Source: Tolypothrix carrinoi HA7290-LM1 (GTDB lineage Bacteria; Cyanobacteriota; Cyanobacteriia; Cyanobacteriales; Nostocaceae). From it: a stretch of 19,569 nt of DNA. Positions 1-19,569 of this stretch are shown here, piece by piece (position 1 is the first letter of the stretch; each line of letters opens with the position of its first letter). The position numbers were made by a program, and so were the translations under genes. Where the stretch lies: assembly GCA_019358935.1 (NCBI GenBank), contig JAHHIK010000135.1:1-19569 (forward strand), read 5' to 3'. The notes under the pieces were generated by a model, which had not been told where the DNA came from, ran no database searches, and worked only from the letters and a program-made list of their open reading frames with translations.

Positions 1-124
1 AACGAGTTAAAAACTAGGGTAGTGAAAATTCTGGAAGCGCTGACTGTTGATGTCATCACTTCTTTGGCAGCTTGGGATTACATTATCCAAGCATTATCTG
101 TAGCAGGTATTTAACAAAATGGTA
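1..124 (+). mobile_element. 3' end of an IS630-family element (transposase C-terminus, terminal sequence and TA target); runs off the window
   Basis: Frame 1 reads NELKTRVVKILEALTVDVITSLAAWDYIIQALSVAGI* (1-114), resembling cyanobacterial IS630 transposase C-termini. It ends CAAAATGG|TA (TA at 123-124). Positions 2-125 are the exact reverse complement of 19446-19569. Confidence 0.85.
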
Positions 125-823
125 TAACCATGCTTCCCAGAACTTGGCAGCCTGAGCTTCTAATCTTTTGGAGTAACGGGTTGTATCCTCGCGCAGTCTC
201 GTAATGCTAACACCATGTGTTGCACTTATCTCGCAAGCATGGTTTTTAAACCAAAGCTCCAGACCAAAAGTAGTAACTTCTGGATGAAACTGCAATGCTA
301 GACCACATTTACCCCAGGAAAACGCCTGGTTTTGATACTTTGGGCTAGAGGCAAGATGGATAGACCCGACAGGTAGATCGAAAGTATCACCGTGCCAGTG
401 GAACACAAGGGTGTTCTCTGCTACTAAGTGAGCTAAAGGTGTGTGTATTCCCTCTTTACTTAGTTCTAACGGTGACCAGCCAATCTCTCTATATGGTCCT
501 GGGTAGACTCTAGCACCAAGAGTACGTGCCATTAGTTGAGCTCCCAGACATATTCCTAAAGTAGGCAAATCAGCATCAAGGCGACGCTCTAACAAACGCA
601 GTTCATCAACTAGGAAGGGATAATTCCGATCATCGTAAGCTCCCATAGGACCACCTAGAATGACAAAAATGTCTGGAGTTAGTGGATTGAGACTAGCGAG
701 ATTATCTAGTCCAGCTTCTACGTACGTAACTGCATAATCTTTCTGATGCAAATTTGCTACCAAACTACCAAGATACCCAAAAGCAGGGTTTCTTGTGTGT
801 CTGATTACAGTAATATTTTTCAT
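83..823 (-). CDS. Class I glutamine amidotransferase-like protein (stand-alone; possible gamma-glutamyl hydrolase/peptidase); last 12 aa derived from the IS630 end
   Basis: ILGGPMG, nucleophile elbow GICLGAQL, EIGW, FHWHGDTF and QFHPE give an intact Cys-His-Glu triad. ATG at 823 preferred over GTG at 832. No synthetase domain. Confidence 0.9.
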   Translation of the reverse strand: MKNITVIRHTRNPAFGYLGSLVANLHQKDYAVTYVEAGLDNLASLNPLTPDIFVILGGPMGAYDDRNYPFLVDELRLLERRLDADLPTLGICLGAQLMARTLGARVYPGPYREIGWSPLELSKEGIHTPLAHLVAENTLVFHWHGDTFDLPVGSIHLASSPKYQNQAFSWGKCGLALQFHPEVTTFGLELWFKNHACEISATHGVSITRLREDTTRYSKRLEAQAAKFWEAWLYHFVKYLLQIMLG

Positions 824-1046
824 GCCTATCACTTTTCAAAAGTAAAATCACATCGGTTTTTTTAATCAAGTGCAAAAGTATATGAGTTTTTACAATAATT
901 TCGGAGGATATTTTTTGAGAAAATTCAAATATAAATTGCTAGTATTTACTATTATAGAATTGACCAAAAAATTAACTCTTACATTTTAAGTAAGTCAACC
1001 TAAAAAACGTAAAATAGACTGAGTGCATCATTTCAGTGATGATTGA

Positions 1047-1075
1047 TGTCAGCTCTGTTAAGAATATAGCTGACA
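1047..1075. repeat. Hairpin in the GST-GATase intergenic region
   Basis: TGTCAGCT (1047-1054) / AGCTGACA (1068-1075) perfect 8-bp arms with further inner pairing; no clear U-tract. Confidence 0.45.
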
Positions 1076-1144
1076 CCAGAAGAAGACTGTATCCTTTTAA
1101 AATTAAGCTTTACAGTCGAGCTTAGTGACATTCCAGTAGAAAAC

Positions 1145-1741
1145 TTATAAACCTGGCATACCAACGTAACCCTTAAGCTTCTTTATTCTGTCAATCCAAG
1201 CAACTACATTTGGATAAGCTTCTAAAGAAATCCCTCCCTCCGGCGCAAGCACAATATACGGGTAACAAGCAACATCTGCAATTGTCGGGTGATCAAGTTC
1301 AAGCCAGTTTCGCTTTTGCAAATGTTCGTCCAAAACTTTGAGTATCACATCTGCTCTCTGTTGCACCAACTCTAGGTCTGTCTTCAGGTTAAAAACGAAG
1401 TGCAGTCTAGCTGTAGCAGGACCGTGTTGAATCTCGTTAGCAGCGATGGACAACCACTGCACCACTTTACCCATAGACTCAGCCTCTATTGGTAGCCAGT
1501 TTTCACCGCCGTAGCGTCGTGCAAGATATACCAGAATTGCCTGGGAATCATGAATGACTAGATCGCCATCAATCAGAATCGGTATTTGACCAAGCGGGTT
1601 CAGTTTTAGAAAAGGTGGAGACTTATGCTCACCTTCCATGAAGTTGACAGGTACAATCTCATGCTCCAACCCAAGCAGCGATAGCATAAGCCGTACCTTA
1701 TAGCAATTTCCCGATAACTCGTAATCGAAGAGTTTGATCAT
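1145..1741 (-). CDS. gst: Glutathione S-transferase family protein
   Basis: SGNCYKVRL N-terminal motif, LNPLGQIPIL, DSQAILVYLA, PTIADVACYPY, YPNVVAWIDRI; GGAGGA RBS upstream. Confidence 0.95.
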   Translation of the reverse strand: MIKLFDYELSGNCYKVRLMLSLLGLEHEIVPVNFMEGEHKSPPFLKLNPLGQIPILIDGDLVIHDSQAILVYLARRYGGENWLPIEAESMGKVVQWLSIAANEIQHGPATARLHFVFNLKTDLELVQQRADVILKVLDEHLQKRNWLELDHPTIADVACYPYIVLAPEGGISLEAYPNVVAWIDRIKKLKGYVGMPGL

Positions 1742-1887
1742 TCATTCCTCCCGTTTCTATCAAATCTGAACATTACAACTTGCTCTTGAAAAATATCCAC
1801 TCCCAACTTTTACCAAGTTAGCCTTTAGATGGGTTGTGACTTAAAGGAAAAGTTATCCTTCCAGTCACACAGATAATTTAGCAAGCA

Positions 1888-2469
1888 TTAGAATGATGAA
1901 TTTGGCTGCTTCAAAAATTCTGCCTCCTCTGGCGTTGTGGCTCGACGAAAAATAGCGTTGCGATGGGGAAAACGTCCAAAGCGCTCAATCACCTCTAAGT
2001 GTTGGACAGCCGATGAGGTCATATATACGCTGTCTGGATCATTGCCAAGTTGACGGAACAGTTCAACCGCTTGTCGCTGATGTTCGAGATTCTCGCTGTG
2101 TTCAAAAGGTAAATAGATGAACCAGCGCTGGATTTTTGGTAGCTCCCAATCAAAACCTTTGGCGATCGCATACTGAGCCAAAGAGAGTGCTTGTGGATCT
2201 GTTGCAAATGCTCGGGGATTACCGCGAAACATATTCCGTGGGAACTGATCGAGTAGGAGGATCAACGCCAGACAGCTGTGGGGAGTTTCTTTCCATTGGT
2301 CAAGTTTACCCGCTGCTGCTTTCTCATAGTCTTCCATAAAGCGGGCTTGAATCTCCCGATCAAAATTTGGATTTGGATCTTTAGTAAACCAAATCGCGCG
2401 ATTTTTTCCGTAATCCTCTTCATCTTTTTTTCCAAACCAAAAGTCTAAAATTTTATTAACTCGTGACAT
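1888..2469 (-). CDS. DUF924 family protein
   Basis: ILDFWFG, LILLLDQFPRNMFRG, FIYLPFEHSE, VIERFGRFPHRN. Start placed at ATG 2469 (MSRVNK) because of a GGAGGA RBS; the ORF-track extension to 2568 overlaps an RNA hairpin. Confidence 0.92.
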   Translation of the reverse strand: MSRVNKILDFWFGKKDEEDYGKNRAIWFTKDPNPNFDREIQARFMEDYEKAAAGKLDQWKETPHSCLALILLLDQFPRNMFRGNPRAFATDPQALSLAQYAIAKGFDWELPKIQRWFIYLPFEHSENLEHQRQAVELFRQLGNDPDSVYMTSSAVQHLEVIERFGRFPHRNAIFRRATTPEEAEFLKQPNSSF

Positions 2470-2523
2470 TAAGTCCTCCTGTACATTGTGTGTAAGGTAA
2501 CAGGAAGTCAGATAGAAAATAAA

Positions 2524-2635
2524 GACGAGGCTGTAAAGACTGGCGTACAACAGCCATCGCATTAACAAATATCAACAACTGTTTGGCACGCCAGTCATAC
2601 GAGCCACGACCGAATCTGTACAGGAACGATGGCTA
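2524..2635 (-). other. Long G-U-rich RNA stem-loop with a competing alternative pairing, between the methyltransferase and DUF924
   Basis: On the - strand GACTGGCGTGC pairs with GTACGCCAGTC and AACAGTTGTTG pairs with CGATGGCTGTT (hairpin 2524-2610, about six G-U pairs). Upstream TAGCCATCGT (2635-2626) can instead pair with GCGATGGCTG (2560-2551). Confidence 0.6.
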
Positions 2636-2759
2636 GATTGATATATGATAGGGTCTACAAGTCGAATTAACCTTTAGAGCTTTAGGGTCGCAATCAGAAA
2701 TTAGGTGCTGTTTTGACTGAGAGATAGCTGGTTTAGTTGTATGTCCTTGTCAGCTCTTA

Positions 2760-3539
2760 TTACTCTTGCTTCAGCAGACGCCACCGCGTTACCATGACAT
2801 GAGGAATTCGAGAATAGCGCTTCCATTTTTCTGGTTGCTCAGCTTGTAACCACTCCGGAGGAACTGGCTCCAGGAGACCATCAAGGACAAAACCAGCCTG
2901 AAAGCAAATCCCAAACAGATGCCACAATGGTCGGTGAAAGAAGGGATGACGTATAGGTTGCCCAGGCTTTGCATTTTCATCCCCGATTGCTGGTTGTATG
3001 TAATCTTTTACCAAAACACCTTCCGTACCAAGCCATTGGGTTTGGGTTCCTAACGAGTTAAAACAGGGATGAGTCACTGAGAATACGAACCGTCCCTCGG
3101 GAACAAGCAGCCGACTAAAAGCCTGTATGAGAGGCTCTATGTTTGCCATATCCATAAGTGCCATTGACACCATCGCAGCATGAAAGCAGCGCTCTCCCAG
3201 AGAAGCGAGTTGATCTGGATCGGTTGCATCTAGGAGTTTATACTCAATGCTACCCGATGCATCTATGGTTCGAGCTTTAGCACGTTTCAACAGTTCTTCT
3301 GAAAAATCGCAGGCTAGAACCGATGCTCCTAACCGAGCCAGACTGCGTGCAAAGGTACCGTTACCGGATGCAATTTCAAGTACCCGCTCACCAGGTTTAA
3401 TAGTGAGGAGTGTCTCCATTGCAGGGTTAACGACGTATTCATGGGCGATGTCTATATCACCTACTTGATTGTCCCACCATTGTGCATTTGCATTCCAGAC
3501 ATCGCGTACACGCTGGTTTATTTCCTTTATTTCAATCAT
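2760..3539 (-). CDS. Class I SAM-dependent methyltransferase
   Basis: Motif I RVLEIASGNG, acidic ACDFSE, LLDATD, RLLVPEGRFVFSVTHPCF. ATG at 3539 follows an AAGGTG RBS (ORF track starts at GTG 3548). Confidence 0.92.
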   Translation of the reverse strand: MIEIKEINQRVRDVWNANAQWWDNQVGDIDIAHEYVVNPAMETLLTIKPGERVLEIASGNGTFARSLARLGASVLACDFSEELLKRAKARTIDASGSIEYKLLDATDPDQLASLGERCFHAAMVSMALMDMANIEPLIQAFSRLLVPEGRFVFSVTHPCFNSLGTQTQWLGTEGVLVKDYIQPAIGDENAKPGQPIRHPFFHRPLWHLFGICFQAGFVLDGLLEPVPPEWLQAEQPEKWKRYSRIPHVMVTRWRLLKQE

Positions 3540-3672
3540 GAAGTGCACCTTAATTTTGCGTAGTCTAGAGAAACTTTTCTTTGCTTATCATCTTGCCCCT
3601 TAAAAGAAGGGTAGGGTGGGATGAATTGCTTAATTTCTGTATTGCCAAAGCTTTGAGCAATTTCAATCGGTA

Positions 3673-4530
3673 TCAGGCTACCATTGTTGTTTTTTTCCCA
3701 CTGGAAAATCCCGTTAACAGATTCATTTGAGCATCCCAGAATTCGACCCACAAGTCACAGTATTTATGACATAATTTCGTCATGTCATCGTATTGAGCGG
3801 GAGTGATCGCCTGCATGAGGACGTACCAAAGGTCATCTTCGTGAGTGTCGTCGTTGGCTTCAGCCTGTACATCATCACTAGTCCCATGACAGACATAGTA
3901 CCCTGAGGTGACATTTATCCCTACAGCTTTTATATTTTCACGCAAAGGTGCACTGAACAGGACAACTTCCTGTTCTGCAACTGCAAGCAAGCTCGTTAGT
4001 AAATTTAAATCATTGTAGGTATCCTCCAGACACTTGCGTACCTGCTTGGCAATTTTGCTAGGAATATATCTCTGTCGTTCCTCAAGACTAATTCTCAGTT
4101 CATCAAGTACACGCTCAAACAAAGGATAGTGGGCGTTATAAGGATTGCCTCGATAGTAGCCATACTCATCGAAACCAGGCTGAAAGCCAAACTCGTCTAA
4201 ATCATTCAGGGTGAGGAGAAATCGGGCATACATCTTACTACCAGGTTTGAGTCGCTGTTCCAACTGATGGGTTTGGTATTGTGCCATCAGAAGGGCATCT
4301 GTAAATATCTGCACAATCGCATGACGGTACTCAAGGTGGATGCGTTTCATCTGTTCTCGATTAAAAGCACCCCGATTCAGCGCTGCAATGACTGGATGAG
4401 TTGCAACCGGATGATGCTTCAAGCTAGAGCGTAAGTTAGCAACAAAGTTCTCGTTTTCCAACCATAAAGAAGCAGGTACTGATTCTTTCATTGCCAATCT
4501 GGCTTTTTGACGTGGATTATCCATTTCCAT
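3673..4530 (-). CDS. Putative heme-oxygenase-like diiron oxidase (HDO; CADD/PqqC/TenA fold)
   Basis: Helical-looking 285 aa with HPxxxHP near the N-terminus and LWVEFWD near the C-terminus. Candidate ligands E113, H134, E186, H215, D227, H230 follow the E..H..E..H..DxxH order of CADD-type diiron sites. GGAGGG RBS. Fold assignment is by motif recognition only. Confidence 0.72.
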   Translation of the reverse strand: MEMDNPRQKARLAMKESVPASLWLENENFVANLRSSLKHHPVATHPVIAALNRGAFNREQMKRIHLEYRHAIVQIFTDALLMAQYQTHQLEQRLKPGSKMYARFLLTLNDLDEFGFQPGFDEYGYYRGNPYNAHYPLFERVLDELRISLEERQRYIPSKIAKQVRKCLEDTYNDLNLLTSLLAVAEQEVVLFSAPLRENIKAVGINVTSGYYVCHGTSDDVQAEANDDTHEDDLWYVLMQAITPAQYDDMTKLCHKYCDLWVEFWDAQMNLLTGFSSGKKTTMVA

Positions 4531-4589
4531 GATGTATCCCTCCGTGTATTTCTACTACGATTTTTTAATCCTGATTTAAGGGTGATATG

Positions 4590-4795
4590 GAATGGCACTA
4601 AAATCAGGCGTGGAAGATTTGAGATTGACTGCGCTTTGCTCTTTCTCTTTCTTTTGTAAATTTCGTCTGTTGACTTAGACTGTCAGTAGCAAATGTCAAG
4701 AAAGTAGAAAGTATTTCCGCTCCTTGCTACCCCAAGGTACCTATTCTTCCAAGCCTTTACTATCCAAAGGTTTCACTTTAACAAGCGTGCCATTC
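4590..4795. mobile_element. 206-bp MITE-like element in the HDO leader
   Basis: Perfect terminal inverted repeats GAATGGCAC (4590-4598) / GTGCCATTC (4787-4795); flanks ATATG / ATATT resemble a target duplication; non-coding interior. Confidence 0.65.
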
Positions 4796-4847
4796 ATATT
4801 AAATCTGATTGCATCAGATGTCTCACACCAATTCAAAACCTGAATTA

Positions 4848-4880
4848 AATATAAAACCTACTCCCTAGTGGAGAGTCAAG
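4848..4880 (-). promoter_or_regulatory. MerR-type promoter/operator driving the HDO-MT-DUF924-GST-GATase cluster
   Basis: - strand cTTGACT ctccactagggagtaggttt TATATT: -35 at 4879-4874, 20-bp spacer, -10 at 4853-4848. First 12 bp identical to both copZ promoters; right half-site degenerate (AGTAG versus TGGAG). Confidence 0.75.
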
Positions 4881-5016
4881 CCAAAACGATAAAATTTTTT
4901 CTTTTTTTTTATAGAGTTAATAGATAAAAGTAATACTTTCATAAATCTATCTTTTTACCGGAGTTTATACTAGTGTTCATTGCTGTTCGTCATTTATCGG
5001 GGTGGGATCAGCGAGC

Positions 5017-5330
5017 CTGTCATTTGCCGCCACTTAACTCTCAAAAGCTTTGTCATGAAAAGCTTCTAGAAAAAAATCTTACTTTTACCCTTTGGCGAAG
5101 GATTTGGCGGACTTAACACGCTAGCAGGAAGCTGTACCATTTGAACCCTGCCGATTTTTATAGCCTGAAACCCTTATGGCTACATTGCAAAACTCTGCAC
5201 CAAATAGAGTAAAGGTCAATTGGCACAACAGTAGCGTACTACATATGACATGAGGCGTGAGCAACGGCATTTTATTTTCAAATCTCTTGCACAGCAAGGT
5301 TTTTAGGCGTTATGTGGCGGCAAACGTCAG
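5017..5330. mobile_element. 314-bp MITE-like element, possibly with a nested element at about 5133-5227
   Basis: CTGTCATTTGCCGCCACTTAAC (5017-5038) matches the reverse complement of 5309-5330 (CTGACGTTTGCCGCCACATAAC) at 19/22. Inner TGTACCATTTGA / TCAATTGGCACA match at 10/12. Confidence 0.65.
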
Positions 5331-5528
5331 CAACGGTTATCTTACCCCTTTATCCAGGTAAATGAATGACTTCTACAATATCAGTCTCTAGACAGATGAG
5401 AATACTTTGTTTCTAATAAAAGATTTATATAAAAAACAGCAAATATCATGCCAATATTTTTATGGTATGAACGTAAAAAAGGTTTTTGTGAAGTGAAATA
5501 ATTGTTTTTTAAGCAGGGTCGTTGAATT

Positions 5529-5945
5529 ATGTTAGTTCAGGAACATTTACAACGAATTGGTTCAATTGCTAAACAAAGCGGTATACCTGTTAAGACAATT
5601 CGCTACTATGAAGAACTCGGTCTAGTTCAATCTTCTACTAGAACAGAGGGAGGATTTAGACTATTTCAACTTGATGTTCTCACTCGCTTAAACTTTATCA
5701 AACGTGCTCAAAGCCTTAATTTTAGTCTTTCAGAAATTAAGTTTTTTTTAGATGTTCATGATCAGGGTGATTTGCCTTGTCAGCATATACGATCTCAGAT
5801 GGAATATAAGCTGTCAGAAATTAATCAGCAAATCGAGCAACTGTCGCTCTTGAAATTAGAGCTAGAAGAGCTACTTTTGGGTTGGAGAGTTATAACTAAA
5901 AAACCAGAAAAGACTATCTGCCCTATAATTGAGAAATGTTGTTGA
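5529..5945 (+). CDS. MerR-family heavy-metal-responsive transcriptional regulator
   Basis: IGSIAKQSGIPVKTIRYYEELGL HTH, RTEGGFRLF, RLNFIKRAQSLNFSLSEI; Cys84, Cys131 (CPII), terminal Cys137-Cys138. Confidence 0.95.
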   Translation: MLVQEHLQRIGSIAKQSGIPVKTIRYYEELGLVQSSTRTEGGFRLFQLDVLTRLNFIKRAQSLNFSLSEIKFFLDVHDQGDLPCQHIRSQMEYKLSEINQQIEQLSLLKLELEELLLGWRVITKKPEKTICPIIEKCC

Positions 5946-6374: not shown

Positions 6375-6407
6375 CTTGACTCTCCAGCTTACTAGAGATT
6401 TTAAAAT
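6375..6407 (+). promoter_or_regulatory. MerR-type promoter/operator of copZ-pacS-cupredoxin
   Basis: cTTGACT (6376-6381), 20-bp spacer containing CTCCA-gcttac-TAGAG, TAAAAT (6402-6407). Confidence 0.88.
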
Positions 6408-6436
6408 GGAATTATTTGATTAAAAAGGTACATGAT

Positions 6437-6631
6437 ATGACACTTCAATTGAAAGTTCCTAACATGGCTTGTTCTGCTTGTGGAGAAAACATCACAAAAG
6501 CAGTCAAAACCGTCGATCCAGCCGCAACCGTTCAAACTGATACCAAAACTAAGCTTGTCCATATCGAAACTCAAGCATCAAAAGCTGCCGTCACAGAAGC
6601 AATTACGGCAGCAGGTTATACCGTTGTTTAG
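6437..6631 (+). CDS. copZ: Copper chaperone (HMA domain, Atx1/CopZ), copy 1
   Basis: MTLQLKVPNMACSAC...AITAAGY with MxCxxC motif; ATG 6437 lies downstream of an AAAGGT RBS and the promoter. Confidence 0.93.
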   Translation: MTLQLKVPNMACSACGENITKAVKTVDPAATVQTDTKTKLVHIETQASKAAVTEAITAAGYTVV

Positions 6632-6680
6632 CACTAAATTCTCAACAAAAGCAGTTCAGGACATCGTTAGGAGGTTTTGA

Positions 6681-8942
6681 ATGGAAAACGCGAATTTGAA
6701 ACTGCGGGGCATGAGTTGTGCCTCTTGCGCTAACGCAATTGAAGATGCAATTCGCTCCATTCCTGGTGTGAATGAGTGTAACGTCAACTTTGGGGCAGAG
6801 CAAGCTACGGTCACCTATGACCCCAGAAAAACTGACCCAGAAGTGATCTGCGATGCGGTAGATGCGGTGGGATACTCTGCTCAACCCATGCAAGACGATG
6901 ATTTATTTGCCGCAGACGATGATGCTCAACAGCAGGCACGCCAAGCCGGAAATCGAGCCTTAGTCAGAAAAGTTTGGGTTGGCGGCATTGTCAGCGCCAT
7001 TCTAGTCATTGGTTCGCTACCAATGATGACGGGATTATCCATTCCCTTTATTCCCATGTGGTTGCACAATCCCTGGCTGCAATTGGTGCTGACGACTCCA
7101 GTGCTGTTTTGGTGTGGTGCATCCTTCTTTATCAATGCCTGGAAAGCTCTCAAACGTCACACGGCAACGATGGATACCTTGGTGGCGATTGGTACTCTTG
7201 CCGCTTATCTCTATTCCCTCTTCCCTACCTTCTTGCCTGGGTTCTTCACCCACCGAGGATTGCCGCCTGATGTCTACTACGAAGCAGCTGCGGTCATCGT
7301 CACTCTTATCTTGTTGGGACGACTGCTTGAGAATCGTGCCAAAGGACAAACTTCTGAAGCAATTCGTAAGTTGATAGGCTTGCAAGCAAAGACTGCTCGT
7401 GTGATTCGCGATAGCAAAGAAGTTGACATTCCGATTACTCAAGTGATTGAAGGCGATGTGATTCTAGTGCGTCCGGGTGAAAAGATTCCAGTAGATGGCG
7501 AGATTATTGATGGCTCCTCAACTATCGATGAGGCAATGGTCACCGGTGAAAGTCTCCCTGTGAAGAAGCAACCAGGTGATGAAGTGATTGGAGCCACGCT
7601 CAACAAAACAGGTAGCTTCAAATTTCGCGCAACACGAGTGGGTAAAGATACATTTTTGGCGCAGATTGTCAAGCTAGTGCAGCAAGCCCAAGGTTCAAAA
7701 GCACCGATTCAGCGATTAGCAGATCAAGTCACAGGCTGGTTTGTACCTGCCGTCATTGCCATTGCGATCACAACTTTCATCCTCTGGTACAACATGACGG
7801 GCAATGTGACAATGGTACTCATTACCACTGTAGATGTACTAATTATTGCTTGCCCGTGTGCCCTTGGCTTGGCAACGCCAACTTCTATCATGGTAGCAAC
7901 AGGCAAGGGTGCAGAAAATGGTATTCTCATTAAAGGGGCAGAAAGTCTAGAACTCGCACACAAGCTAAAAACTATTGTTCTTGACAAAACGGGTACGATT
8001 ACGCAAGGTAAGCCCACCGTCACTGACTTTGTAACCGTCAACGGTACAGCCAATGGCAACGAGCGAAATCTCCTGTGCCTGGCAGCATCTGTCGAACGCA
8101 ATTCAGAACATCCGCTAGCGGAGGCAGTTGTAAATTATGCTCAATCTCAAGGTGTGGAATTGAGGGATTCACAGGATTTTGAGGCGATCGCTGGTAGCGG
8201 TGTGCAAGGATATGTATCAAATCAATGGATACAAATTGGTACCCATCGTTGGATGAATGAGTTAGGCATTGATACAAATGCATTACAAGAACATTGGGAT
8301 CACCTAGAGTATCTAGGTAAGACGGTCATCTGGATTGCGGTGAATAGCAAAGTTCAAGGGATTATGGGCATTGCTGATGCGGTGAAACCGTCTTCTGTGA
8401 ACGCGATTCGTACATTGCAAAAAATGGGGTTGGAAGTGGTGATGTTGACGGGAGACAATCGCCGCACTGCCGAAGTGATTGCGCGTGAAGTCGGCATTAA
8501 GCGAATCTTTGCTGAAGTTCGCCCGGATCACAAAGCCGAGACCGTCGAGAAACTTCAGTCGGAAGGCAAAATTGTAGCAATGGTCGGGGATGGCATCAAT
8601 GATTCACCAGCGTTGGCTCAAGCTGATGTCGGTATGGCAATTGGAACAGGAACAGATGTGGCGATCGCGGCTAGTGACATCACCCTTATCTCTGGGGATT
8701 TACTCTTGATTGTCACCGCCATTCAACTCTCTCGTGCCACGATTCGCAATATTCGTCAGAATCTCTTCTTCGCCTTTATCTACAACGTCGCTGGTATTCC
8801 AATCGCAGCAGGAATTCTCTTCCCTATCTTCGGTTGGCTGCTCAACCCCACTATTGCAGGTGCAGCAATGGCGTTTAGTTCCGTCTCCGTAGTAACGAAT
8901 GCGCTGCGTTTGCGTAACTTTCAACCTAAAACAACTGGTTGA
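6681..8942 (+). CDS. pacS: Cu(I)-translocating P1B-1 ATPase (PacS/CopA type)
   Basis: N-terminal [41 protein letters not shown], transmembrane YN and MAFSS ligands; AGGAGG RBS. Confidence 0.96.
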
Positions 8943-8962
8943 ATAAATCACAGGGAGTAGTA

Positions 8963-9046
8963 ATGATGCTTAAGAAAGTAACATTTTTTGGAACCTTGGC
9001 AGGATTTGGATTTCTGCTGGGAGCGATTTCAGGAGCGTTAGCGTAG
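8963..9046 (+). pseudogene. Signal-peptide-only ORF (27 aa), probable stump of a deleted exported protein gene
   Basis: GGGAG RBS, then MMLKKVTFFGTLAGFGFLLGAISGALA*; resembles the N-terminus of the downstream cupredoxin (IIGSIASLGLVFGIAS). Confidence 0.55.
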
Positions 9047-9087
9047 CTTGCAATGTAGTTAAATTCCCCAACGGAGGCGTTTAAATC

Positions 9088-9645
9088 ATGAACAAAATAG
9101 CAATCATTGGTAGTATTGCAAGTTTGGGATTGGTGTTTGGAATTGCTTCTAACAAAGCAGTTGCACAAATGTCCCACGAACAGATGCAACCATCTCATAC
9201 AAAGCAAACGGGTCAGTTCCGTCGCATCGAACAACCCTTGTGGGCAAAAGGAGCCGTTACTGCTGGCGGATTAGGACTGATAGGACTGGAGTTATGGTGG
9301 TTTCTGCTGAGTAAGCCAAAATCGCAAAAAGCACAATCAAAGCAGGGGATTCAAGAGGTAACAATTACCGTTGATGGTGGGTATGAACCAAGCCAAGTGG
9401 TAGTTAATACAGGTCAAAGAGTTCGGCTCAACTTCTACCGTAAAGACTCCAGTAGTTGCCTTGAAGAAATCCGATTTCCTGACTTCCATATTGCCCAAGA
9501 GCTACCCCTAAACCAAGTTACTCCGATTGAGTTTACTCCCAACCAACCAGGAACTTACACCTTTACCTGCGGCATGAATATGTTTCGCGGTGTGATTGAA
9601 GTGGAGTCATCCAATGCTCTTCGCACAGAGCAGATTTCAGCATGA
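9088..9645 (+). CDS. Membrane-anchored cupredoxin-domain protein (CupA-like)
   Basis: Signal peptide (AVA|Q), hydrophobic segment ending LELWWFL, VDGGYEPS, SSCLEEI and FTCGMNMFRG copper ligands; GGAGG RBS. Confidence 0.9.
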   Translation: MNKIAIIGSIASLGLVFGIASNKAVAQMSHEQMQPSHTKQTGQFRRIEQPLWAKGAVTAGGLGLIGLELWWFLLSKPKSQKAQSKQGIQEVTITVDGGYEPSQVVVNTGQRVRLNFYRKDSSSCLEEIRFPDFHIAQELPLNQVTPIEFTPNQPGTYTFTCGMNMFRGVIEVESSNALRTEQISA

Positions 9646-9661
9646 AAACGGGGAGCACCTG

Positions 9662-10650
9662 GGGAGCATCCCATTTTTGCAGAAATACTGATTCATGAGT
9701 GTAGTATGGGGAGAACACAATACTTACTAAAACCATAGGCATGACCCTCGAAGAAAAAGAACGGTTACAAGCAGCAGTAAAAGAAATCGCGACAATCCTG
9801 TATAAAAATACATCACCATCCGAGTTAGAGACTTTGGAAGGAATCGAAAAAACAGTGCGATCGCAGATACTGGAGTACGTCAGTTCTGAAATCGCCTTTT
9901 TTTTATCGAACAAACTACAGGCACAAATAAAGGACGACCCAGACAAATCACGCATTTGTGTAGGGGAGTTGCCGATCACGGAAAAGCAAGCGCGCTCCTT
10001 GGGGCTCGAGCCAAGAAGTCACCTGAGCCCAGTATTAGAGAAATGCAGCTTCAGACTATGTGCCAATGAGTCCTACCAAAATGCCGAGTTGGAACTAGAA
10101 GCATTAACGGGAGTGAAAGTCGGACATAGCACACTACACCGACTGGTGAACAGACAGGATCTGCCACAACCATCGGCATTGCAAGCGGTTTCTCAAGTGA
10201 GTTTGGACGGGGGTAAGGTGCGGTTGCGAACACCAAAAGGACAAGAATGTGAGTGGCGCGATTATAAAGCGGTACGCTTAGGCGGAATTTATTATGGCGC
10301 TTTTTTTCACGATCACCAATCCCTTTTGGATTGGGTTAACTCACAGAGGCTAGTCACCCCATTAGTGTGCTTGGGGGATGGGCATGATGGTGTTTGGAAA
10401 TTATTTACTGAAATTGGCAGTTCTTCAACCCGACTGGAGATCCTCGATTGGTATCAAGTGCTTTGAAAACCTATACAAAGTTGGTGGTTCTCTCAAGCGA
10501 CTTAAGCAAGCAGAAAACTTACTCTGGATTGGTGAGGTAGATGCGACGATCGCTTTGTTTGTTGATTTAGTGAAAAAACAGGCAAAGAATTTTTGTGCAT
10601 ATTTGAACAAGCATCGAAGGTTGTTCCTCCGCAGTGGCTCTCATCATTAA
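9662..10650 (+). mobile_element. Degenerate ISKra4-family element (transposase pseudogene from 9741)
   Basis: Left end GGGAGCATCCCATTT at 9662. TLEGIEKTVR, T8 slippery run at 9897-9904, LDGGKVRLRTP, WRDYKAV, CLGDGHDGVW, EILDWY. Extra frameshifts near 9950 and 10460; similarity lost after about 10620. Confidence 0.85.
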
Positions 10651-10799
10651 GCACTAGGTAATTGGAAGTATCCCAGTTTGATTTTTTTAGAACCAGAGTT
10701 TAATAAAATAAAACTAAATAAAAAACTGGGCTTGCTCGTAAATCATTCTTATCTTAAAAGCATTTTTACCAAAGACTCAACAATTTTTTTTACATCCCT

Positions 10800-10832
10800 C
10801 TTGACTCTCCAGTTAAATGGAGGATTTAAGGT
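10800..10832 (+). promoter_or_regulatory. MerR-type promoter/operator of copZ2-flavodoxin-His-rich protein-RND unit
   Basis: cTTGACT (10801-10806), 20-bp spacer with perfect dyad CTCCA-gttaaa-TGGAG, TAAGGT (10827-10832). Confidence 0.88.
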
Positions 10833-10905
10833 GATTTTAGATGAGGTGGAGCTTTTCAATCACACATCTAACTCCATAACAAATTATCCAAGGTTATTGA
10901 CAGCT

Positions 10906-11103
10906 ATGACACTACAACTTAAAGTTCCTAAACTGGTTTGCTCTGGTTGCGTCAAAACTATCACTGAGGCAATTAAAAAGGTTGATGTTAACGCTATTGT
11001 TCAAGCTGACCCAAAAACGAAATTAATTAACGTAGAAACTCAAGCACCTAGAACAGCTATTGAGACAGCGATCGCGTCAGCAGGTTATCCAACAGCTGCT
11101 TAA
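10906..11103 (+). CDS. copZ: Copper chaperone (HMA domain, Atx1/CopZ), copy 2
   Basis: MTLQLKVPKLVCSGC...AIASAGY; same N-terminus as copy 1, so start set at ATG 10906 rather than 10678. Confidence 0.92.
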   Translation: MTLQLKVPKLVCSGCVKTITEAIKKVDVNAIVQADPKTKLINVETQAPRTAIETAIASAGYPTAA

Positions 11104-11209
11104 TTTGTAAATGACGTATTCTACCATCAGCTATTGGCTTATGCTCTGCTGATAGCTGAATTTCCGAAAAACTCTCAAACATTTTCACGCCAGTCAGTAA
11201 GGAGGAAAA

Positions 11210-11682
11210 ATGGCTAAGATTGGCTTGTTTTATGGAACTCAAACTGGGAATACCCAAACCCAAGCCCAACTTATTCAGAAAGAGTTTGGTGGCGACAGCG
11301 TTGTTGATATCTACGACATCTCTAAAGTAGAATCGAACGATTTTGAGAACTACAACTACATCATCATTGGATGCCCTACCTGGAACATAGGTGAACTGCA
11401 AGACGACTGGGATAATTTCTTTGACGAGTTAGACAATATCGATTTTAGTGGCAAGAAAGTTGCCTATTTTGGGGCTGGCGACCAGAACGGCTACCCCGAC
11501 TCTTTTCAAGACGCAATGGGCATCTTAGAAGAAAAGATTCAGAACTTGGGGGTGAAACCGCCCGCTACTGGTCAACTGAGGGCTACGACTTTACGGAGTC
11601 AAAAGCAGTGCGCGACAGCAAGTTTGTCGGTTTAGCGCTAGATGAAGATAACCAATCTGAGTTAACACAACAACGCATCTTA
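11210..11682 (+). pseudogene. isiB: Long-chain flavodoxin (IsiB/FldA type), frameshifted and C-terminally truncated
   Basis: GLFYGTQTGNT, GCPTWNIGELQDDW, YFGAGDQ. The G5 run at 11548-11552 lacks one G; the shifted frame continues [19 protein letters not shown]...[19 protein letters not shown], then runs straight into the next gene's RBS without the final helix. Confidence 0.9.
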
Positions 11683-11695
11683 GGAGGTAAGTTTT

Positions 11696-12577
11696 ATGAA
11701 GATATTGATGAGTGCGATCGCTACTATTGCAACTCTATTATTTGCACAAAGTTGTTCGACATCACCTAATGCTCAAGAACCGTCAACCGCAGTTTCAGTT
11801 CAACAACACAACGACAAGCATTCAACACAAGTGGGAAGTCACGCAGGACATTCGATGAATGATTCAAGTGACACAAAAACGAATGCAGCGATTCAAGCAA
11901 AACTTACGGTTCCAGAAACGGTCGCAGTTAATGCTCCTGTCCCGTTAGTAATTAATCTTCAAGATGCAACAGAGAAACCTATCGACAAGTTTGATGTTTC
12001 CCACGAACAACTCATGCATCTCATCGTAGTCAGTGATGACCTTCGGTTTTTCGATCATCTGCATCCACGTTATGAAGGCAACGGGCGTTTTACCATCGAA
12101 GCGCAATTACCCAAATCTGGAGGGTATACACTCTTTAGCGATTACAAACCCACTGGACAAACTCAGCAAGTCTCGACACTCAAAACCCAAGTTCCAGGGG
12201 ACAGTTCATCTTCCCCGGACGTAAACTTCAAGCGTAGTCAAACATTTACCAACACCAAGGTCAATTTAGAGCTACCTACTGAAACGGTCAAAGCGGGTGA
12301 GGAATTTGCTGTAACCTTCAATCTCAAAGGCTCTAATAATCAACCTGTCACCGATTTACAGCCTTATATGGGTGAACGGGGACACTTGGTAATTTTGCGT
12401 CAATCGGCCTCACTCACCTCAGCTGATTATATCCATGCTCACGCAATCAAAGATACAACTCCCGGACAAGTTCAGTTTGTGACCAGCTTTCCCAAACCTG
12501 GACTATACAAGCTTTGGGGACAGTTCAACCGCAATGGTGAAATCGTCACGGCTGATTTTTGGGTAAAGGCGAATTAA
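11696..12577 (+). CDS. Secreted/lipoprotein His-rich putative metal-binding protein with two repeated domains
   Basis: Signal peptide ending AQS-C; His-rich linker (HNDKH, HAGHSM); [20 protein letters not shown] and [12 protein letters not shown]...YIHAH repeats; AGGAGG RBS. Confidence 0.8.
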
Positions 12578-12651
12578 CAAAGAACGGGTACTACAGTTCT
12601 GATGCATTCTGATTTCCCAAGGTTTTACATCGCTTTAATTGTTGGTGAGTT

Positions 12652-14046
12652 ATGGAATCTTCTGAGTCTCGACCTTCAAATAGTAAACGTCAGTTCGCGC
12701 CAAAGTTAACGCCGGGTTTCTGGGCAATGTTAGCCTTGCTCCTAGTTGGTGGCGGTGTTGGGTCTTGGTGGTTTTTGGCTCCGGACAAGGAATCACCTCC
12801 AACGGCAGCTAGCCAACCCCAGGCAACAAAGGTACAAGTTGCGACGGTGCAAACTGCCACTATAGAGGAAAGTGCAGAATTTGTTGCAAATCTTCAGTCT
12901 CGTCGCTCTGTCACTCTACGACCGAGAATTCAGGGTCAAGTCTCTCAGATATTTGTTCGGGCAGGGGAGCGGGTTAAAGAAGGTATCCCAATTTTGAAAG
13001 TTGATGCAAAGCAACAACAAGCTTCTGTTGACAGTAGAATCGCAGCTTATGAGTCCACTCAAGCTGATTTGGAAATAGCCCAAGCAGAAGTAAAAAGCGC
13101 CCAAGCAGAAGCAAAAAATGCAACAGCGACACTAAAAGCGTTACAAGCTCGTCGAGTTTCTGAACAGTCTGACTTAAAACTCAATCAGCGCGAGTATGAG
13201 CGGTTCAGCCAGCTATATCAAGAAGGAGCCACCAGTTTGCAAATCCTGGAGCAAAGGCGGAACAGCTTAGAAGCAGCCAAAGCCAAGCTTGCTCAGACGG
13301 ATGCTGACATTGCAGCTCAAGAAGCCATGATTACTAGAGCAGAGGCAGTGATCGCTAAGGCAAAGGCAACAATTGTTAAGAACCGGAGGTTAATCAACCA
13401 AGCTCGGGCAAATGTAAATGAGCAAGCAGCAGAACTTCAGTTTTATACAATTTCTGCGCCGTTTGCGGGTATTGTGGGTGACATTCCTGTTAAGGTGGGT
13501 GATTTTGTCGATACGTCTACCCAGTTAATCACCGTTTCTGAAAACGGTTTATTAGAGGTTAACATTTCGGTTCCCGCAGAACAGGTCGCTCAATTGCGGT
13601 TAGGAAGTTTAGTGGAGTTGGTAGACGGTCAGGGGCGGAAAGCTGGTACCAGTCGCGTATTTTTCATTGCGCCCAACACGGCGAATCAGACACAATCGGT
13701 ACTTGTCAAAGCACTGTTGGATAATTCTCAAGCTCGAGTGCGAACCGACCAATTTATTCGAGCGCGGGTGATTTTGGATCGGCGTCCCGGAGTCCGCATT
13801 CCCACAACCGCTGTAACTCGTTTAGCCAAAGAGACGTTTGTGTTTGTAGTTGAGGAATCGCGCTCATCGCAGTCTGCCCAATCTCAGTTTGTGGCTCGGC
13901 AAAAACCTGTTGAACTAGGCAGTATTGAAGGCAATCAATACCAGGTTTTGAAAGGATTGCAACCAGGAGAACAAATCATCATCTCTAGTTTGCTCACTTT
14001 AAGGGATGGTGCGCCAATTATTCCTGAACCTGAGAAAAATAATTAA
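12652..14046 (+). CDS. RND efflux periplasmic adaptor (membrane fusion protein)
   Basis: N-terminal transmembrane segment, LRPRIQGQVSQIFVRAGERVKEG, long coiled coil, ISAPFAGIVGDIPVKVGDFV, VLKGLQPGEQII. Confidence 0.95.
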   Translation: MESSESRPSNSKRQFAPKLTPGFWAMLALLLVGGGVGSWWFLAPDKESPPTAASQPQATKVQVATVQTATIEESAEFVANLQSRRSVTLRPRIQGQVSQIFVRAGERVKEGIPILKVDAKQQQASVDSRIAAYESTQADLEIAQAEVKSAQAEAKNATATLKALQARRVSEQSDLKLNQREYERFSQLYQEGATSLQILEQRRNSLEAAKAKLAQTDADIAAQEAMITRAEAVIAKAKATIVKNRRLINQARANVNEQAAELQFYTISAPFAGIVGDIPVKVGDFVDTSTQLITVSENGLLEVNISVPAEQVAQLRLGSLVELVDGQGRKAGTSRVFFIAPNTANQTQSVLVKALLDNSQARVRTDQFIRARVILDRRPGVRIPTTAVTRLAKETFVFVVEESRSSQSAQSQFVARQKPVELGSIEGNQYQVLKGLQPGEQIIISSLLTLRDGAPIIPEPEKNN

Positions 14047-14155
14047 TTAGCGAACAATGCATATTGTTGCAGCAAAAGCAAGTCCTAATTGTTTATTTTT
14101 TCATTGACCGATAGTTCTTTGATGGTACAAGCCTCTACATTTATCCCTGGAATCC

Positions 14156-14186
14156 ATCCAAAATCTAAAATCCAAAATCCAAAATC
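14156..14186. repeat. Short tandemly repeated heptamer (STRR), ATCCAAA/ATCTAAA, about 4.4 copies
   Basis: atccaaa atctaaa atccaaa atccaaa atc immediately upstream of the RND gene; typical of filamentous cyanobacteria. Confidence 0.85.
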
Positions 14187-14195
14187 GGTTGACCT

Positions 14196-17100
14196 ATGTT
14201 CGCGGATTTTTTCATCAAGCGACCCGTCTTTGCGATCGTCTGCTCCCTGATAGTTTTGGTATTGGGACTAATTAGCATTCCAACGCTGCCTGTAGAGCAG
14301 TATCCAGACATTAGCCCCGTTCAAATTAGCGTCACAGCCAACTATGTTGGAGCCAGTGCCCAAATTGTCGAAGAAACCGTGACATCGGTTTTAGAGCGAC
14401 AGATCAATGGGGTCGAAGGCATGAGATATATGAATTCGACCAGCAGCAATGACGGTAATAGCACAATTACCATCACTTTTGAACAGGGCTATGACATTAA
14501 TGTTGCAGCCTCTGATGTACAGAATCGTGTTTTGCTGGCACAACCGAAACTACCAGAAGTGGTTCGACAAACCGGAGTCGCAGTTACAAAACAATCAAGT
14601 GGGATTGTTTTAGCAATGGCGCTATACAGCGAGGACGATCGCTACGATGATACTTTTATTAGTAACTATGCAGATTTGTATGTGTTAGACTCGCTCAGAC
14701 GTATCAATGGTGTAGGAAATGTCCTATCCTTTGGAGAACGTCGTTATGCCATGCGAATTTGGCTCGATCCCAATCGCCTTGCTGGTCGTAATTTGACGGC
14801 TCAAGATGTGGTGAATGCCCTCAATCAACAAAATTTGCAGTTAGGCATCGGTGCGATTGGACAACCACCCGCCCCCGATGGGCAAAAGTTTCAGATCGAT
14901 TTGCAAGCTGTTGGACGACTGCGAGAAGCCAAGGAGTTTGAGAATATCATCCTCAAAGCAGGAAATGACGGGACGCTGATCAAACTCAAAGATGTCGGGC
15001 GGGCAGAACTGGGGGCAGAAAGTTACAGCACATTTGCTCGCTATGACGGTCATATTTCTGTAGGCTATCAAATCATCCAAATTCCTGGCAGTAACGCCTT
15101 GGAAATTGCTAAGGCGGTTAAGGCAGAGATGGCACGACTGGCAAAGAATTTTCCACCAGGATTAACATATGAAATCCCCTATGATTCTTCCCGATTTGTT
15201 GAAGCATCCTTCTGGGAAGTGGTCAAAACGCTGATTGAATCGATTGTGCTGGTTGTTGGAGTTATTTTCATTTTCTTGCAAGACTGGCGGACTACCATTG
15301 TTCCAGCGATCGTGATTCCGGTTTCCTTAATTGGCACTTTTGCATTTGTCAAAGTGTTTAATTTTTCACTTAATAGTCTGACTTTATTTGGTTTAACCCT
15401 GGCGACCGGAATGGTTGTCGATGATGCAATCGTTATTGTTGAAGATGTGGTTCGTTTGCTTGAGGAAAAAAGTATCAGTCCGCGTCAGGCGGCTTCTGAA
15501 GCAATGCACGAACTGTTTGGAGCCGTAATTGCAACCTCGCTAGTTCTCATGGCGGTTTTTGTTCCAGTTGCTTTCTTTCCGGGAACAACAGGACAACTCT
15601 ACAAACAATTTGCACTAACGATCGCATTTTCGACTACGCTTTCCACCTTTAATGCCATTACATTTACTCCTGCCGTGTCCGCCATACTGTTACGTCGAGG
15701 ACAACAACCACGCGGCTGGCTCGGCTGGTTTTTTGCAAGGGTAAATGACTTTCTCGACTGGATGCACAGAGGCTATCAACGGATTCTCGGCACTGTCATT
15801 CGCTTTAAGATGGTTGTGTTGTTGTTATTTACTGTATCTTTGGTACTTACAGGCTGGTTGTATCTGCGTGTTCCTCAAGCATTTGTGCCAGAGGAGGACC
15901 AGGGCTATTTTGTCAACCTGATTCAGGGACCGGATGGCGTTTCGTTAAATTACACTCGCTCAGTCGTCATGAAAGCCGAAAAAGAATTACTCAACGTCCC
16001 TGAGATTGAGGGCGTGTTTGCAATGGGCGGTGTTAGTTTTAGCGGAAACACTCCCAATCGTGGATTGATTATGACTCCCCTCAAATCGTGGTCAGAGCGG
16101 CAAAAGCCAGAGCAATCGGTATCAGCAATTCTCAATCGGGTACGCGCACCGCTGATGGGAATTCCAGAAGCACCTGTTCTAGCCGTCAATCCTCCAACTA
16201 TCCAGAGTCTCGGCAGTGTTGGCGGTTTTGTGTTTCAATTGCAAGACCGAGGCGATCAAAGCAATCGAGACATGAATGCACTGGATCAAGTCAAGAACGA
16301 GCTAATTAGCCGCGCCAATCAAACTCCAGGATTGCAAGGAGTCTTTAGTACCTATACTGCTAACGCGCCTCAGTTGATGGTTGAAGTAGATCGAAGCAAA
16401 GCAGAAGCTGTACAGATTCCAATTGATGAAATTTTCAGTACCCTACAAACGTTTATCGGTTCGCGCTATGTGAATGATTTCAACGAATTTGGTCGAACAT
16501 ACCGCGTTTATGTTCAAGCAGACTCACAATTTCGTTCTAACCCAAAAGATGTTGGTCGCTTGTATGTGCGCTCAAGAGTTGGCAACATGATACCCCTTAG
16601 TAACGTTGTAACGATTAAATCAACGACTGGGGCACAAACAATTAATCACTACAACCTTTACCGCTCCATTGAAATCAACGGAGCAGCTGCTCCTGGTTTT
16701 AGTTCTGGGCAAGCAATTGCGGCTATGGAAAAGCTAGCAGCTGAGGTATTACCCGCAAATTTCGGTTTTGAATGGTCGGGTATCTCCTTAGAAGAAGTAG
16801 AATCTGGCGGTCAAGCTCCAATTATTTTCAGTTTGGGGGTCTTTTTTGTCTTCCTTGTGCTGGCAGCGCAATACAACAATTTTGTCGATCCTTTCATCAT
16901 TATGCTGGCAGTTCCCTTGGCGGTCTTGGGAGCTTTATCGACTCAATCCCTGCGGGGCTTGTACAACGATGTTTACTGTCAAGTTGGTTTAGTCATGCTG
17001 ATTGGGTTAGCTAGCAAGAATTCGATTTTAATTGTAGAATTTGCCAACCAGCTACGAGAACAGGGACTTTCAGTTACTAAGGCAGTGGTGGAAGCTGCAC

Positions 17101-17312
17101 AAGCACGATTGCGTCCTATCCTCATGACAACAGTTTCAACTTTAATCGGCAGCTATCCGCTGCTTGTTGCGACAGGAGCTGGATCTGCCAGCCGACTGTC
17201 ATTGGGGACGGCGGTTTTTGGTGGGATGTTCATTTCTACGTTCTTGAGCTTGTTTGTAGTGCCAGTACTCTACATCATTATTATTAAGATTCGCCAACAG
17301 TTGGTGCGATAG
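14196..17312 (+). CDS. RND efflux permease, HAE1 (AcrB/MexF-like) family
   Basis: FFIKRPVFA, LPVEQYPDI, ERRYAMRIWLDP, GMVVDDAIV proton-relay Asp pair, GLASKNSILIVEFA, RLRPILMT; 1038 aa. Confidence 0.95.
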   Translation: MFADFFIKRPVFAIVCSLIVLVLGLISIPTLPVEQYPDISPVQISVTANYVGASAQIVEETVTSVLERQINGVEGMRYMNSTSSNDGNSTITITFEQGYDINVAASDVQNRVLLAQPKLPEVVRQTGVAVTKQSSGIVLAMALYSEDDRYDDTFISNYADLYVLDSLRRINGVGNVLSFGERRYAMRIWLDPNRLAGRNLTAQDVVNALNQQNLQLGIGAIGQPPAPDGQKFQIDLQAVGRLREAKEFENIILKAGNDGTLIKLKDVGRAELGAESYSTFARYDGHISVGYQIIQIPGSNALEIAKAVKAEMARLAKNFPPGLTYEIPYDSSRFVEASFWEVVKTLIESIVLVVGVIFIFLQDWRTTIVPAIVIPVSLIGTFAFVKVFNFSLNSLTLFGLTLATGMVVDDAIVIVEDVVRLLEEKSISPRQAASEAMHELFGAVIATSLVLMAVFVPVAFFPGTTGQLYKQFALTIAFSTTLSTFNAITFTPAVSAILLRRGQQPRGWLGWFFARVNDFLDWMHRGYQRILGTVIRFKMVVLLLFTVSLVLTGWLYLRVPQAFVPEEDQGYFVNLIQGPDGVSLNYTRSVVMKAEKELLNVPEIEGVFAMGGVSFSGNTPNRGLIMTPLKSWSERQKPEQSVSAILNRVRAPLMGIPEAPVLAVNPPTIQSLGSVGGFVFQLQDRGDQSNRDMNALDQVKNELISRANQTPGLQGVFSTYTANAPQLMVEVDRSKAEAVQIPIDEIFSTLQTFIGSRYVNDFNEFGRTYRVYVQADSQFRSNPKDVGRLYVRSRVGNMIPLSNVVTIKSTTGAQTINHYNLYRSIEINGAAAPGFSSGQAIAAMEKLAAEVLPANFGFEWSGISLEEVESGGQAPIIFSLGVFFVFLVLAAQYNNFVDPFIIMLAVPLAVLGALSTQSLRGLYNDVYCQVGLVMLIGLASKNSILIVEFANQLREQGLSVTKAVVEAAQARLRPILMTTVSTLIGSYPLLVATGAGSASRLSLGTAVFGGMFISTFLSLFVVPVLYIIIIKIRQQLVR

Positions 17313-19380: not shown

Positions 19381-19446
19381 ACTGACTTGTCAGTGCTTCG
19401 CTATCGTCTGGGGTAATCGCGAGCAAAAACACCCAAAAAAGATTGA

Positions 19447-19569
19447 TACCATTTTGTTAAATACCTGCTACAGATAATGCTTGGATAATGTAATCCCAAG
19501 CTGCCAAAGAAGTGATGACATCAACAGTCAGCGCTTCCAGAATTTTCACTACCCTAGTTTTTAACTCGT
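19447..19569 (-). mobile_element. 3' end of a second copy of the IS630-family element, inverted relative to the left-end copy
   Basis: 19446-19569 is the exact reverse complement of 2-125. Confidence 0.85.

Follow-up and report, generated by a model that had tools for sequence, protein, structure and literature searches.

An uncharacterised enzyme cassette with a heme-oxygenase-like diiron enzyme behind a MerR-type promoter on a cyanobacterial copper island

Introduction

Only one copper-regulated pathway using heme-oxygenase (HO)-like diiron oxidases/oxygenases (HDOs) was found in the literature that we searched, that of fluopsin C in Pseudomonas aeruginosa. According to the accessible parts of two reports, this system comprises flcABCDE, CueR, copZ and mexPQ-opmE (PMC13653836, PMC11363339), in agreement with the precedent named by a first-pass annotation of the DNA studied here. 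That DNA, from the cyanobacterium Tolypothrix carrinoi HA7290-LM1, carries a cassette of five enzyme genes, including one for an HDO, next to copper genes. We analyzed the whole 19,569-nucleotide contig (JAHHIK010000135.1 of GCA_019358935.1; contig C135 of genome G000 in our numbering), which we call the window; L-numbers denote loci and G-numbers genomes that were compared with it.

In the plant glucosinolate and camalexin routes, a glutathione S-transferase (GST) acts before the gamma-glutamyl peptidase GGP1. The text available for PMC12958103 describes plant GGP1 as trimming glutathione conjugates, and an S1 site as common to glutaminases and gamma-glutamyl hydrolases; in ergothioneine synthesis, an excerpt of PMC10989515 has EgtB use gamma-glutamylcysteine. 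A further system with related components is dirammox (dnfABC), whose YfeJ-like amidotransferase DnfC is reported, in the accessible parts of two papers, to hydrolyse glutamate gamma-hydroxamate (PMC11440038, PMC13753816).

Here we argue that the cassette is a real, uncharacterised module whose genes are probably functionally coupled. The reading that we tentatively favor, at somewhat short of an even chance, is that this module uses glutathione, sits on a mobile copper island and has as its most likely product a small, methylated metal ligand that contains sulfur.

Results

An HO-like diiron enzyme in a five-gene cassette

The open reading frame (ORF) list of the window confirms five minus-strand ORFs at 3673-4530, 2760-3548, 1888-2568, 1145-1741 and 83-832. 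Families were assigned with Pfam and NCBIfam models in a scan of 18 window proteins, and together with the ORF list they bear out the five co-oriented enzyme genes of the first-pass annotation. The cassette, its promoter and the neighboring regulator are as follows.

3673..4530, minus strand: HO-like diiron oxidase/oxygenase (HDO) of an uncharacterised subfamily; predicted ligands E113, H134, E186, H215, D227 and H230
2760..3548, minus strand: class I S-adenosylmethionine (SAM) methyltransferase of a rare subclade; family model, nearest structures uncharacterised
1888..2469, minus strand: DUF924 protein; PF06041 at 225 bits, PDB 2I6H at E 3e-38
1145..1741, minus strand: GST; family model
83..832, minus strand: stand-alone class I glutamine amidotransferase (GATase), candidate gamma-glutamyl hydrolase; NF005458 above cut-off, triad C95-H183-E185
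4848..4879, minus strand: MerR-type promoter of the HDO gene; -35 TTGACT (4879-4874), 20-bp spacer, -10 TATATT (4853-4848)
5529..5945, plus strand: MerR-family regulator; C84 and C131 (CPII), no CueR-type first loop cysteine

The probable start of the DUF924 gene is the ATG at 2469, which follows AGGAGG; the listed ORF reaches a TTG at 2568, and relatives are 193 amino acids long. Intergenic gaps within the cassette measure 124-312 bp.

The HDO matches PF14518 weakly (E 5e-5, below cut-off), and a single-sequence search of the PDB gave no match, so that a profile was needed. Its predicted structure (AF2 pLDDT 94.4, pTM 0.90) has CADD, BesC, HrmI, FlcD and UndA as top Foldseek and VIA matches, pointing to a heme-oxygenase-like helical fold. 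In a profile alignment, E113, H134, E186, H215, D227 and H230 align with the ligands of CADD. These six positions are kept, in that order, in 57, 57, 57, 56, 57 and 57 of 57 close homologues and in 41, 40, 40, 37, 35 and 37 of 43 distant ones. Judged by the model, then, the protein is an HO-like diiron enzyme with a complete predicted 3His/3carboxylate site, as the first-pass annotation had supposed, and it belongs to an uncharacterised subfamily.

Comparison with the described systems

Like the fluopsin system, the window has a MerR-type promoter that precedes genes for an HDO and a SAM methyltransferase, with copZ, copA and a multidrug-type resistance-nodulation-division (RND) pump next to them. 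The differences are substantial: the cassette has one HDO where fluopsin has two (FlcD and FlcE); none of the 18 window proteins scanned belongs to a lyase family, so FlcB and FlcC have no counterpart, and a GST, a gamma-glutamyl hydrolase and DUF924 stand in the place of the lyases; the cassette HDO keeps all six ligands, whereas the FlcD motif is E-H-X-H-V-R, with 12% structure-based identity between the two proteins; and the window's regulator lacks the CueR cysteine pair. With one HDO, no FlcB/FlcC lyases and no canonical CueR, we rejected the idea that the cassette is a fluopsin operon.

Among the 3His/3carboxylate HDOs, CADD, BesC, HrmI and UndA are 14-18% identical to the cassette HDO, which differs from them by two long inserts, one of 20 residues between E113 and H134 and one of 11 residues between H215 and D227. 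The cassette also lacks a BesD-type halogenase partner. We rejected a CADD-type self-sacrificing pABA synthase: the sacrificial residues of CADD, Tyr27, Tyr43 and Lys152, align to Ile48, Ile64 and Pro195.

The resemblance to glucosinolate/camalexin and ergothioneine synthesis is one of enzyme classes only (an iron oxidase, glutathione or gamma-glutamylcysteine as sulfur donor, a class I gamma-glutamyl hydrolase and a methyltransferase), and the cassette differs in having no C-S lyase in the cluster. In dirammox, a diiron enzyme likewise adjoins a stand-alone YfeJ-like amidotransferase, but DnfA is of the CmlI/AurF type rather than HO-like, and neither an AurF nor a DnfB reductase family is found among the window proteins. 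The five-gene combination, which the first-pass annotation did not recognize as a described pathway, has no description in the literature searched, a body of text that omits most subscription papers.

Unrelated genes supply the same enzyme types in a second arrangement

The methyltransferase has 41 relatives in 389 genomes, of which five share at least 82% identity and the others 44-50%. Each of the five close relatives has an HDO gene as its direct neighbor and a GST gene one or two genes away; at 25 distant methyltransferase loci GST, DUF924 and GATase are absent within 1.5 kb. A fold search named no characterised close enzyme.

The second arrangement occurs in G735 and G737. Here the order is a divergent TetR gene, the GST (75%), the methyltransferase (82%), an HDO designated P0324, gshA and a pentapeptide gene; further along are insertion sequence (IS) remnants, DUF924 (75%) and a gamma-glutamyl hydrolase of the peptidase-C26 type. 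The same copper island as in the window, here ytkA-copA-cupredoxin-merR-copZ-fld-MFP-RND, lies a few kb off, on the other side of the module. P0324, which has 244 homologues and is identical to a protein that one source assigns to Fischerella thermalis, has no detectable similarity to the window HDO, and gshA (glutamate-cysteine ligase) is an extra copy beside the housekeeping one. As judged from these sequences, HDO and gamma-glutamyl hydrolase have each been supplied twice, by unrelated genes, to the same methyltransferase-GST-DUF924 core, and the two uncharacterised HDO subfamilies appear interchangeable. Because the enzyme types recur despite gene replacement, these data suggest that the genes form a glutathione-dependent pathway; the presence of a GST, of gshA and of gamma-glutamyl hydrolases of two types suggests that glutathione is a substrate. 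We take the HDO, methyltransferase and GST as the core of the module, with DUF924 and the gamma-glutamyl hydrolase as accessory members. DUF924 has one passing mention in the literature searched.

The GATase retains an intact Cys-His-Glu triad (C95, H183, E185) in a stand-alone class I glutamine amidotransferase fold. Its PDB neighbors are the four top structural neighbors of plant GGP1, the closest structure being 9XFS, and GGP1 itself was not matched by the GATase sequence search. The closest plasmid relative of this GATase, at 69%, stands immediately behind the gene for an AurF-type diiron oxygenase, and the reported activity of DnfC on glutamate gamma-hydroxamate offers a model for a route without sulfur. 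Here the HDO would N-hydroxylate a gamma-glutamyl amide, a hydroxylamine or hydroxamate would be released by the GATase, as has been proposed for DnfA/DnfC, and its N-methylation by the methyltransferase would give an N,O metal ligand, leaving the GST a purely protective role. We consider this improbable, the least probable of the readings weighed here: of the cassette genes, that of the GATase is the least consistently present whereas that of the GST is constant, a DnfB-type reductase is missing, and the HDO is not of the AurF type.

The plasmid locus is of interest in itself. On NZ_CP040282 (L207:6486-10293), MarR, AurF-type diiron oxygenase, GATase and globin genes stand together, by sequence a dnfA/dnfC-like pair in a cyanobacterium; the accessible part of a dirammox survey has no mention of cyanobacteria.

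A MerR-type promoter upstream of the HDO gene

The 11-mer TTGACTCTCCA occurs at 4879 (minus strand), 6376 and 10801, three copies against 0.01 expected, and none of 200 shuffles reached three. We built a weight matrix from 14 sites before copA, copZ, merR and ytkA genes, leaving the HDO site out. In a genome scan the HDO site scored 20.5 bits, against 36-50 bits for the genome's six strong sites, five of which were in the training set of the matrix; it ranked next after these six and one reverse reading of a palindrome. All ranked sites share the -35 TTGACT, 20 bp and then the -10. L001 and L002 also have this promoter before the HDO gene, in L002 at 85 bp from the start. All three copies combine an intact left operator half-site with a degenerate right one. 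The motif shared with the copper export genes thus holds for the -35, left half-site, 20-bp spacer and -10, and not for the right half-site.

The weight-matrix scan found no MerR box before the other four cassette genes and none for merR itself (best score -13 bits). The divergence from merR that the first-pass annotation noted is true of the window's layout, but the merR start is 650 bp from the HDO promoter, merR has no box, and in L002 it is not divergent. A generic sigma-70 scan, which is blind to 20-bp spacers, gave 12 promoters against 14.1 in shuffles. The leader between promoter and HDO start (4531-4847) is about 265 bp longer than that of L002, and its last 30 bases match the L003 leader.

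The CueR signature is a pair of cysteines within the C-terminal metal loop, with no cysteine where the dimer helix begins. The window's MerR scores 85.8 bits against the CueR model TIGR02044 (cut-off 147.4), and in all six copies shown C84 and C131 are present and the first loop cysteine is absent. We rejected its identification as CueR on both grounds. Since the first loop cysteine is absent, the metal that this MerR senses has to be inferred from the genes behind its box. A sharply conserved operator, TTGACT-CTCCAG-N4-CTGGAG with a 20-bp spacer, stands before copA, copZ, merR and ytkA genes together with a two-cysteine MerR (window 6376 and 10801; contigs C126, C71 and C23 of the same genome; L002, L105, L147 and L212). 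The operator and the two-cysteine MerR look like an undescribed cyanobacterial copper regulon, and on promoter architecture copper control of the cassette is plausible.

In the contigs of RNA run X3, the cassette is covered in four pieces from 126 to 4811, with nothing listed for 4812-5560, so that cover ends about 30 bases before the predicted transcription start near 4841. Contig depths are ~2460-2850 for the HDO and methyltransferase, 513 for DUF924-GST-GATase and 90-310 for the copper genes. We did not count these holes and depths as evidence, because they come from the contigs of a single study and cannot rank genes; the contigs may also derive from DNA, and the cover is in separate pieces, not one transcript. 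A biocrust RNA run yielded short pieces of the cassette.

A mobile copper island with a conserved pump

The rest of the window consists largely of copper genes between IS ends.

6376..9645, plus strand: copper block of MerR box, copZ, Cu(I)-type P1B ATPase and cupredoxin; ATPase motifs CPC, YN and MAFSS, TIGR01511 above cut-off
10801..17312, plus strand: second copper block of MerR box, copZ, frameshifted flavodoxin, YtkA-like protein, membrane-fusion protein and HAE1 RND permease
1..125, no strand: insertion-sequence end, with an inverted repeat copy at 19446-19569

The RND permease belongs to the HAE1 type (TIGR00915 1308, above 940), not to CusA/CzcA (TIGR00914 435, below 701). Its identity is 95-98% across the six genomes that carry all or some of the cassette, no more than 69% in four other genomes and 66-76% on plasmids; neither the pump nor the cassette accompanies two close copA blocks. 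The permease is a candidate exporter of the cassette product. Within the second block, the flavodoxin gene (11210-11680) has a frameshift near 11537 when compared with L001 and run X3 and is intact in G735/G737, and the YtkA-like protein (11696-12577) is secreted and His-rich, has an internal repeat and recurs behind the MerR boxes of these islands. An IS-like insertion at 9650-10700 takes the place of the second merR of L001.

The HDO is present in 5/389 genomes of the family, 0/10 of the same genus and 4/401 of the phylum. L001 has a layout identical to that of the window at 92-98% nucleotide identity, while the rpoB genes are 82% identical, so the island's transfer was recent. The copper-island context proposed for the cassette holds in all six genomes that carry it or a part.

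Mobility also raises the prospect that the cassette is passive cargo: unrelated stress genes gathered by IS activity, with no common pathway and with the half-broken box as a relic promoter. The IS end recurs on four other contigs, at the contig end in three; it bounds the island, and it now supplies the final 13 residues of the GATase in place of the original ones. Such cargo would fit the identity of the island between genomes that differ far more in rpoB, the variable gene order and content, the gaps of up to 312 bp, and the closest plasmid relatives of DUF924 and GATase, which stand without other cassette genes. Conservation of the promoter motif proves little here, because its flanks, too, are well conserved in L002. 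What makes this reading unlikely is that an unrelated HDO adjoins the same rare methyltransferase although the genome has just three HDO-like matches among 7355 long ORFs, and that gamma-glutamyl chemistry recurs via non-orthologous genes.

The HDO family beyond the cassette, and the case for detoxification

The HDO family comprises 482 homologues, and viral collections hold 26 loci for this HDO, with identities like those of the Acinetobacter matches. We counted neighbors at the best 80 of 121 metagenome loci, many of them short and many from related Acinetobacter. The expected co-occurrence of HDO homologues with the partner enzymes or metal genes fails beyond three Nostocales genomes; two of the 80 loci have a GATase of 35% identity ~4 kb away, and a PNPOx-like flavoprotein lies beside the HDO in several. 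The second HDO is absent from the viral collections and was not found at 1e-10 in five targets searched, none of them a known positive. We rejected EppR as the neighboring TetR, as the paper gives a different locus.

Several observations weigh against the ligand reading that we favor. A TetR gene lies within 1.2 kb of the HDO in 49/80 metagenome loci, and methyltransferase, GST, DUF924, copA, copZ and merR (E 1e-10) are found in none of the 80, so that the subfamily itself is not tied by its neighborhoods to copper or to the cassette partners. The second HDO is also near TetR elsewhere; the G735/G737 module lacks a MerR box and lies opposite a TetR gene that comes with an ACAGA..TCTGT palindrome; and the commonest neighbor of the GST family elsewhere is a PNPOx-like flavoprotein (10/24 non-cassette loci). 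Within the cyanobacteria, L002 has box-HDO-methyltransferase-DUF924-GST directly behind the RND gene and no GATase in the cluster, L003 has an 85% identical HDO without cassette partners or box, and in G799 nothing but DUF924-GST-GATase is present, at the end of a contig, and neither methyltransferase nor HDO was found in its 390-contig assembly. Because their islands have a common ancestry, the six genomes count as about two independent arrangements. The right operator half, by sequence, is degenerate in all three copies. Finally, no C-S lyase or dipeptidase is present in the cluster, and the missing lyase is a real gap in the route proposed below.

A rival reading is that the HDO, GST, methyltransferase and gamma-glutamyl hydrolase instead inactivate a thiol-reactive compound, which they would oxidise, conjugate to glutathione, trim and methylate, with the RND pump expelling the conjugate. 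A GST, a gamma-glutamyl hydrolase and an exporter form a textbook route of conjugate disposal. The target, incoming or stress-generated, could be an electrophile or a copper ionophore that is more toxic with copper, and the module would be ancestrally TetR-regulated and later captured by the copper promoter. In line with this, TetR_C_13-type repressors and PNPOx-like flavoproteins are repeatedly found as neighbors of the two HDO families and of the GST family in different phyla; all five TetR-linked loci checked contain a TetR-type palindrome, and the window leader has neither this palindrome nor a relic of such an operator; and the G735/G737 neighborhood includes DsbA-like, thioredoxin-reductase-like and flavin monooxygenase genes. 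We nevertheless regard detoxification as on the unlikely side, though a serious contender: every cassette genome has the cassette in a copper island with one specific pump, and characterised HDOs are, in the accessible part of PMC13108848, mainly linked to amino- and fatty-acid transformations in biosynthesis.

Three other contexts of the family deserve mention. At L026-L041, a near-perfect Fur-type box lies ~200 bp before the HDO, between TetR and HDO; it was seen in 15/85 upstream regions scanned, all of one Acinetobacter-like locus type (17-19 of 19 matches to the consensus; shuffle maximum 16). That iron should apparently repress an iron enzyme is odd. At L109:423-15545 (G749:C153), a 36% identical HDO lies inside a clear biosynthetic cluster with ACP, a KS-AT-ACP-aminotransferase-condensation protein, Rieske oxygenase, thioesterase, HlyD and ABC genes. 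At L003:9998-14261, genes for a ParA/CooC-like ATPase, a peptide deformylase and a small DUF6171 protein rich in Cys come after the HDO.

Discussion

The enzyme classes, the diiron ligand set, the co-occurrence and the promoter architecture were obtained by computation; all of the chemical steps we infer. In the ligand reading, the module would have been placed behind a MerR-type copper promoter in the window's lineage. Cu(I) would activate MerR and switch on the promoter at 4879, and the HDO would oxidise an amino-acid-like substrate at nitrogen, in the manner of FlcE. The GST could then add glutathione to the reactive product, and the GATase would remove the gamma-glutamate, as GGP1 does on glutathione conjugates. 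The thiol might be freed by a host peptidase and a C-S lyase encoded outside the cluster, or by DUF924; the methyltransferase would cap N or S, and the chelate would leave through the co-inherited HAE1 RND pump. The outcome would be a fluopsin-like end reached by a glucosinolate-like sulfur route.

A pyridoxal phosphate (PLP) enzyme encoded near the cassette may be relevant to the C-S step that the cluster lacks. The metal islands of G762 and G799 carry an orphan SbnA-family PLP enzyme and an EamA transporter (L106:365-2378; L144:11389-13546); the G799 enzyme is above the TIGR03945 cut-off, and a 45% relative lies elsewhere in the window's genome.

The first-pass annotation overstated the case for a copper metabolite, yet non-orthologous replacement keeps it well worth testing. 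In its boldest form, which we think doubtful, the proposal is of a copper-induced, island-borne pathway of filamentous cyanobacteria that makes a small, sulfur-containing copper chelator with glutathione as the source of sulfur, convergent with fluopsin, with plant-like GST/gamma-glutamyl-peptidase chemistry, either of two unrelated HDOs, and a first role for both DUF924 and the two-cysteine MerR.

Only about a dozen HDOs have known reactions, by the accessible text of PMC13108848, and the loci described here add two uncharacterised subfamilies. One of these occurs widely in Acinetobacter and Dyella, next to TetR genes, so that a single substrate would inform hundreds of proteins. If detoxification proved true, an HDO would act in defence rather than synthesis. 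For a cyanobacterial MerR regulon, a precise operator is now defined. Cyanobacteria release strong copper ligands under copper stress, and the part of PMC4284471 available names no genes for them; the cassette is a small, testable gene set for such a cyanobacterial copper ligand.

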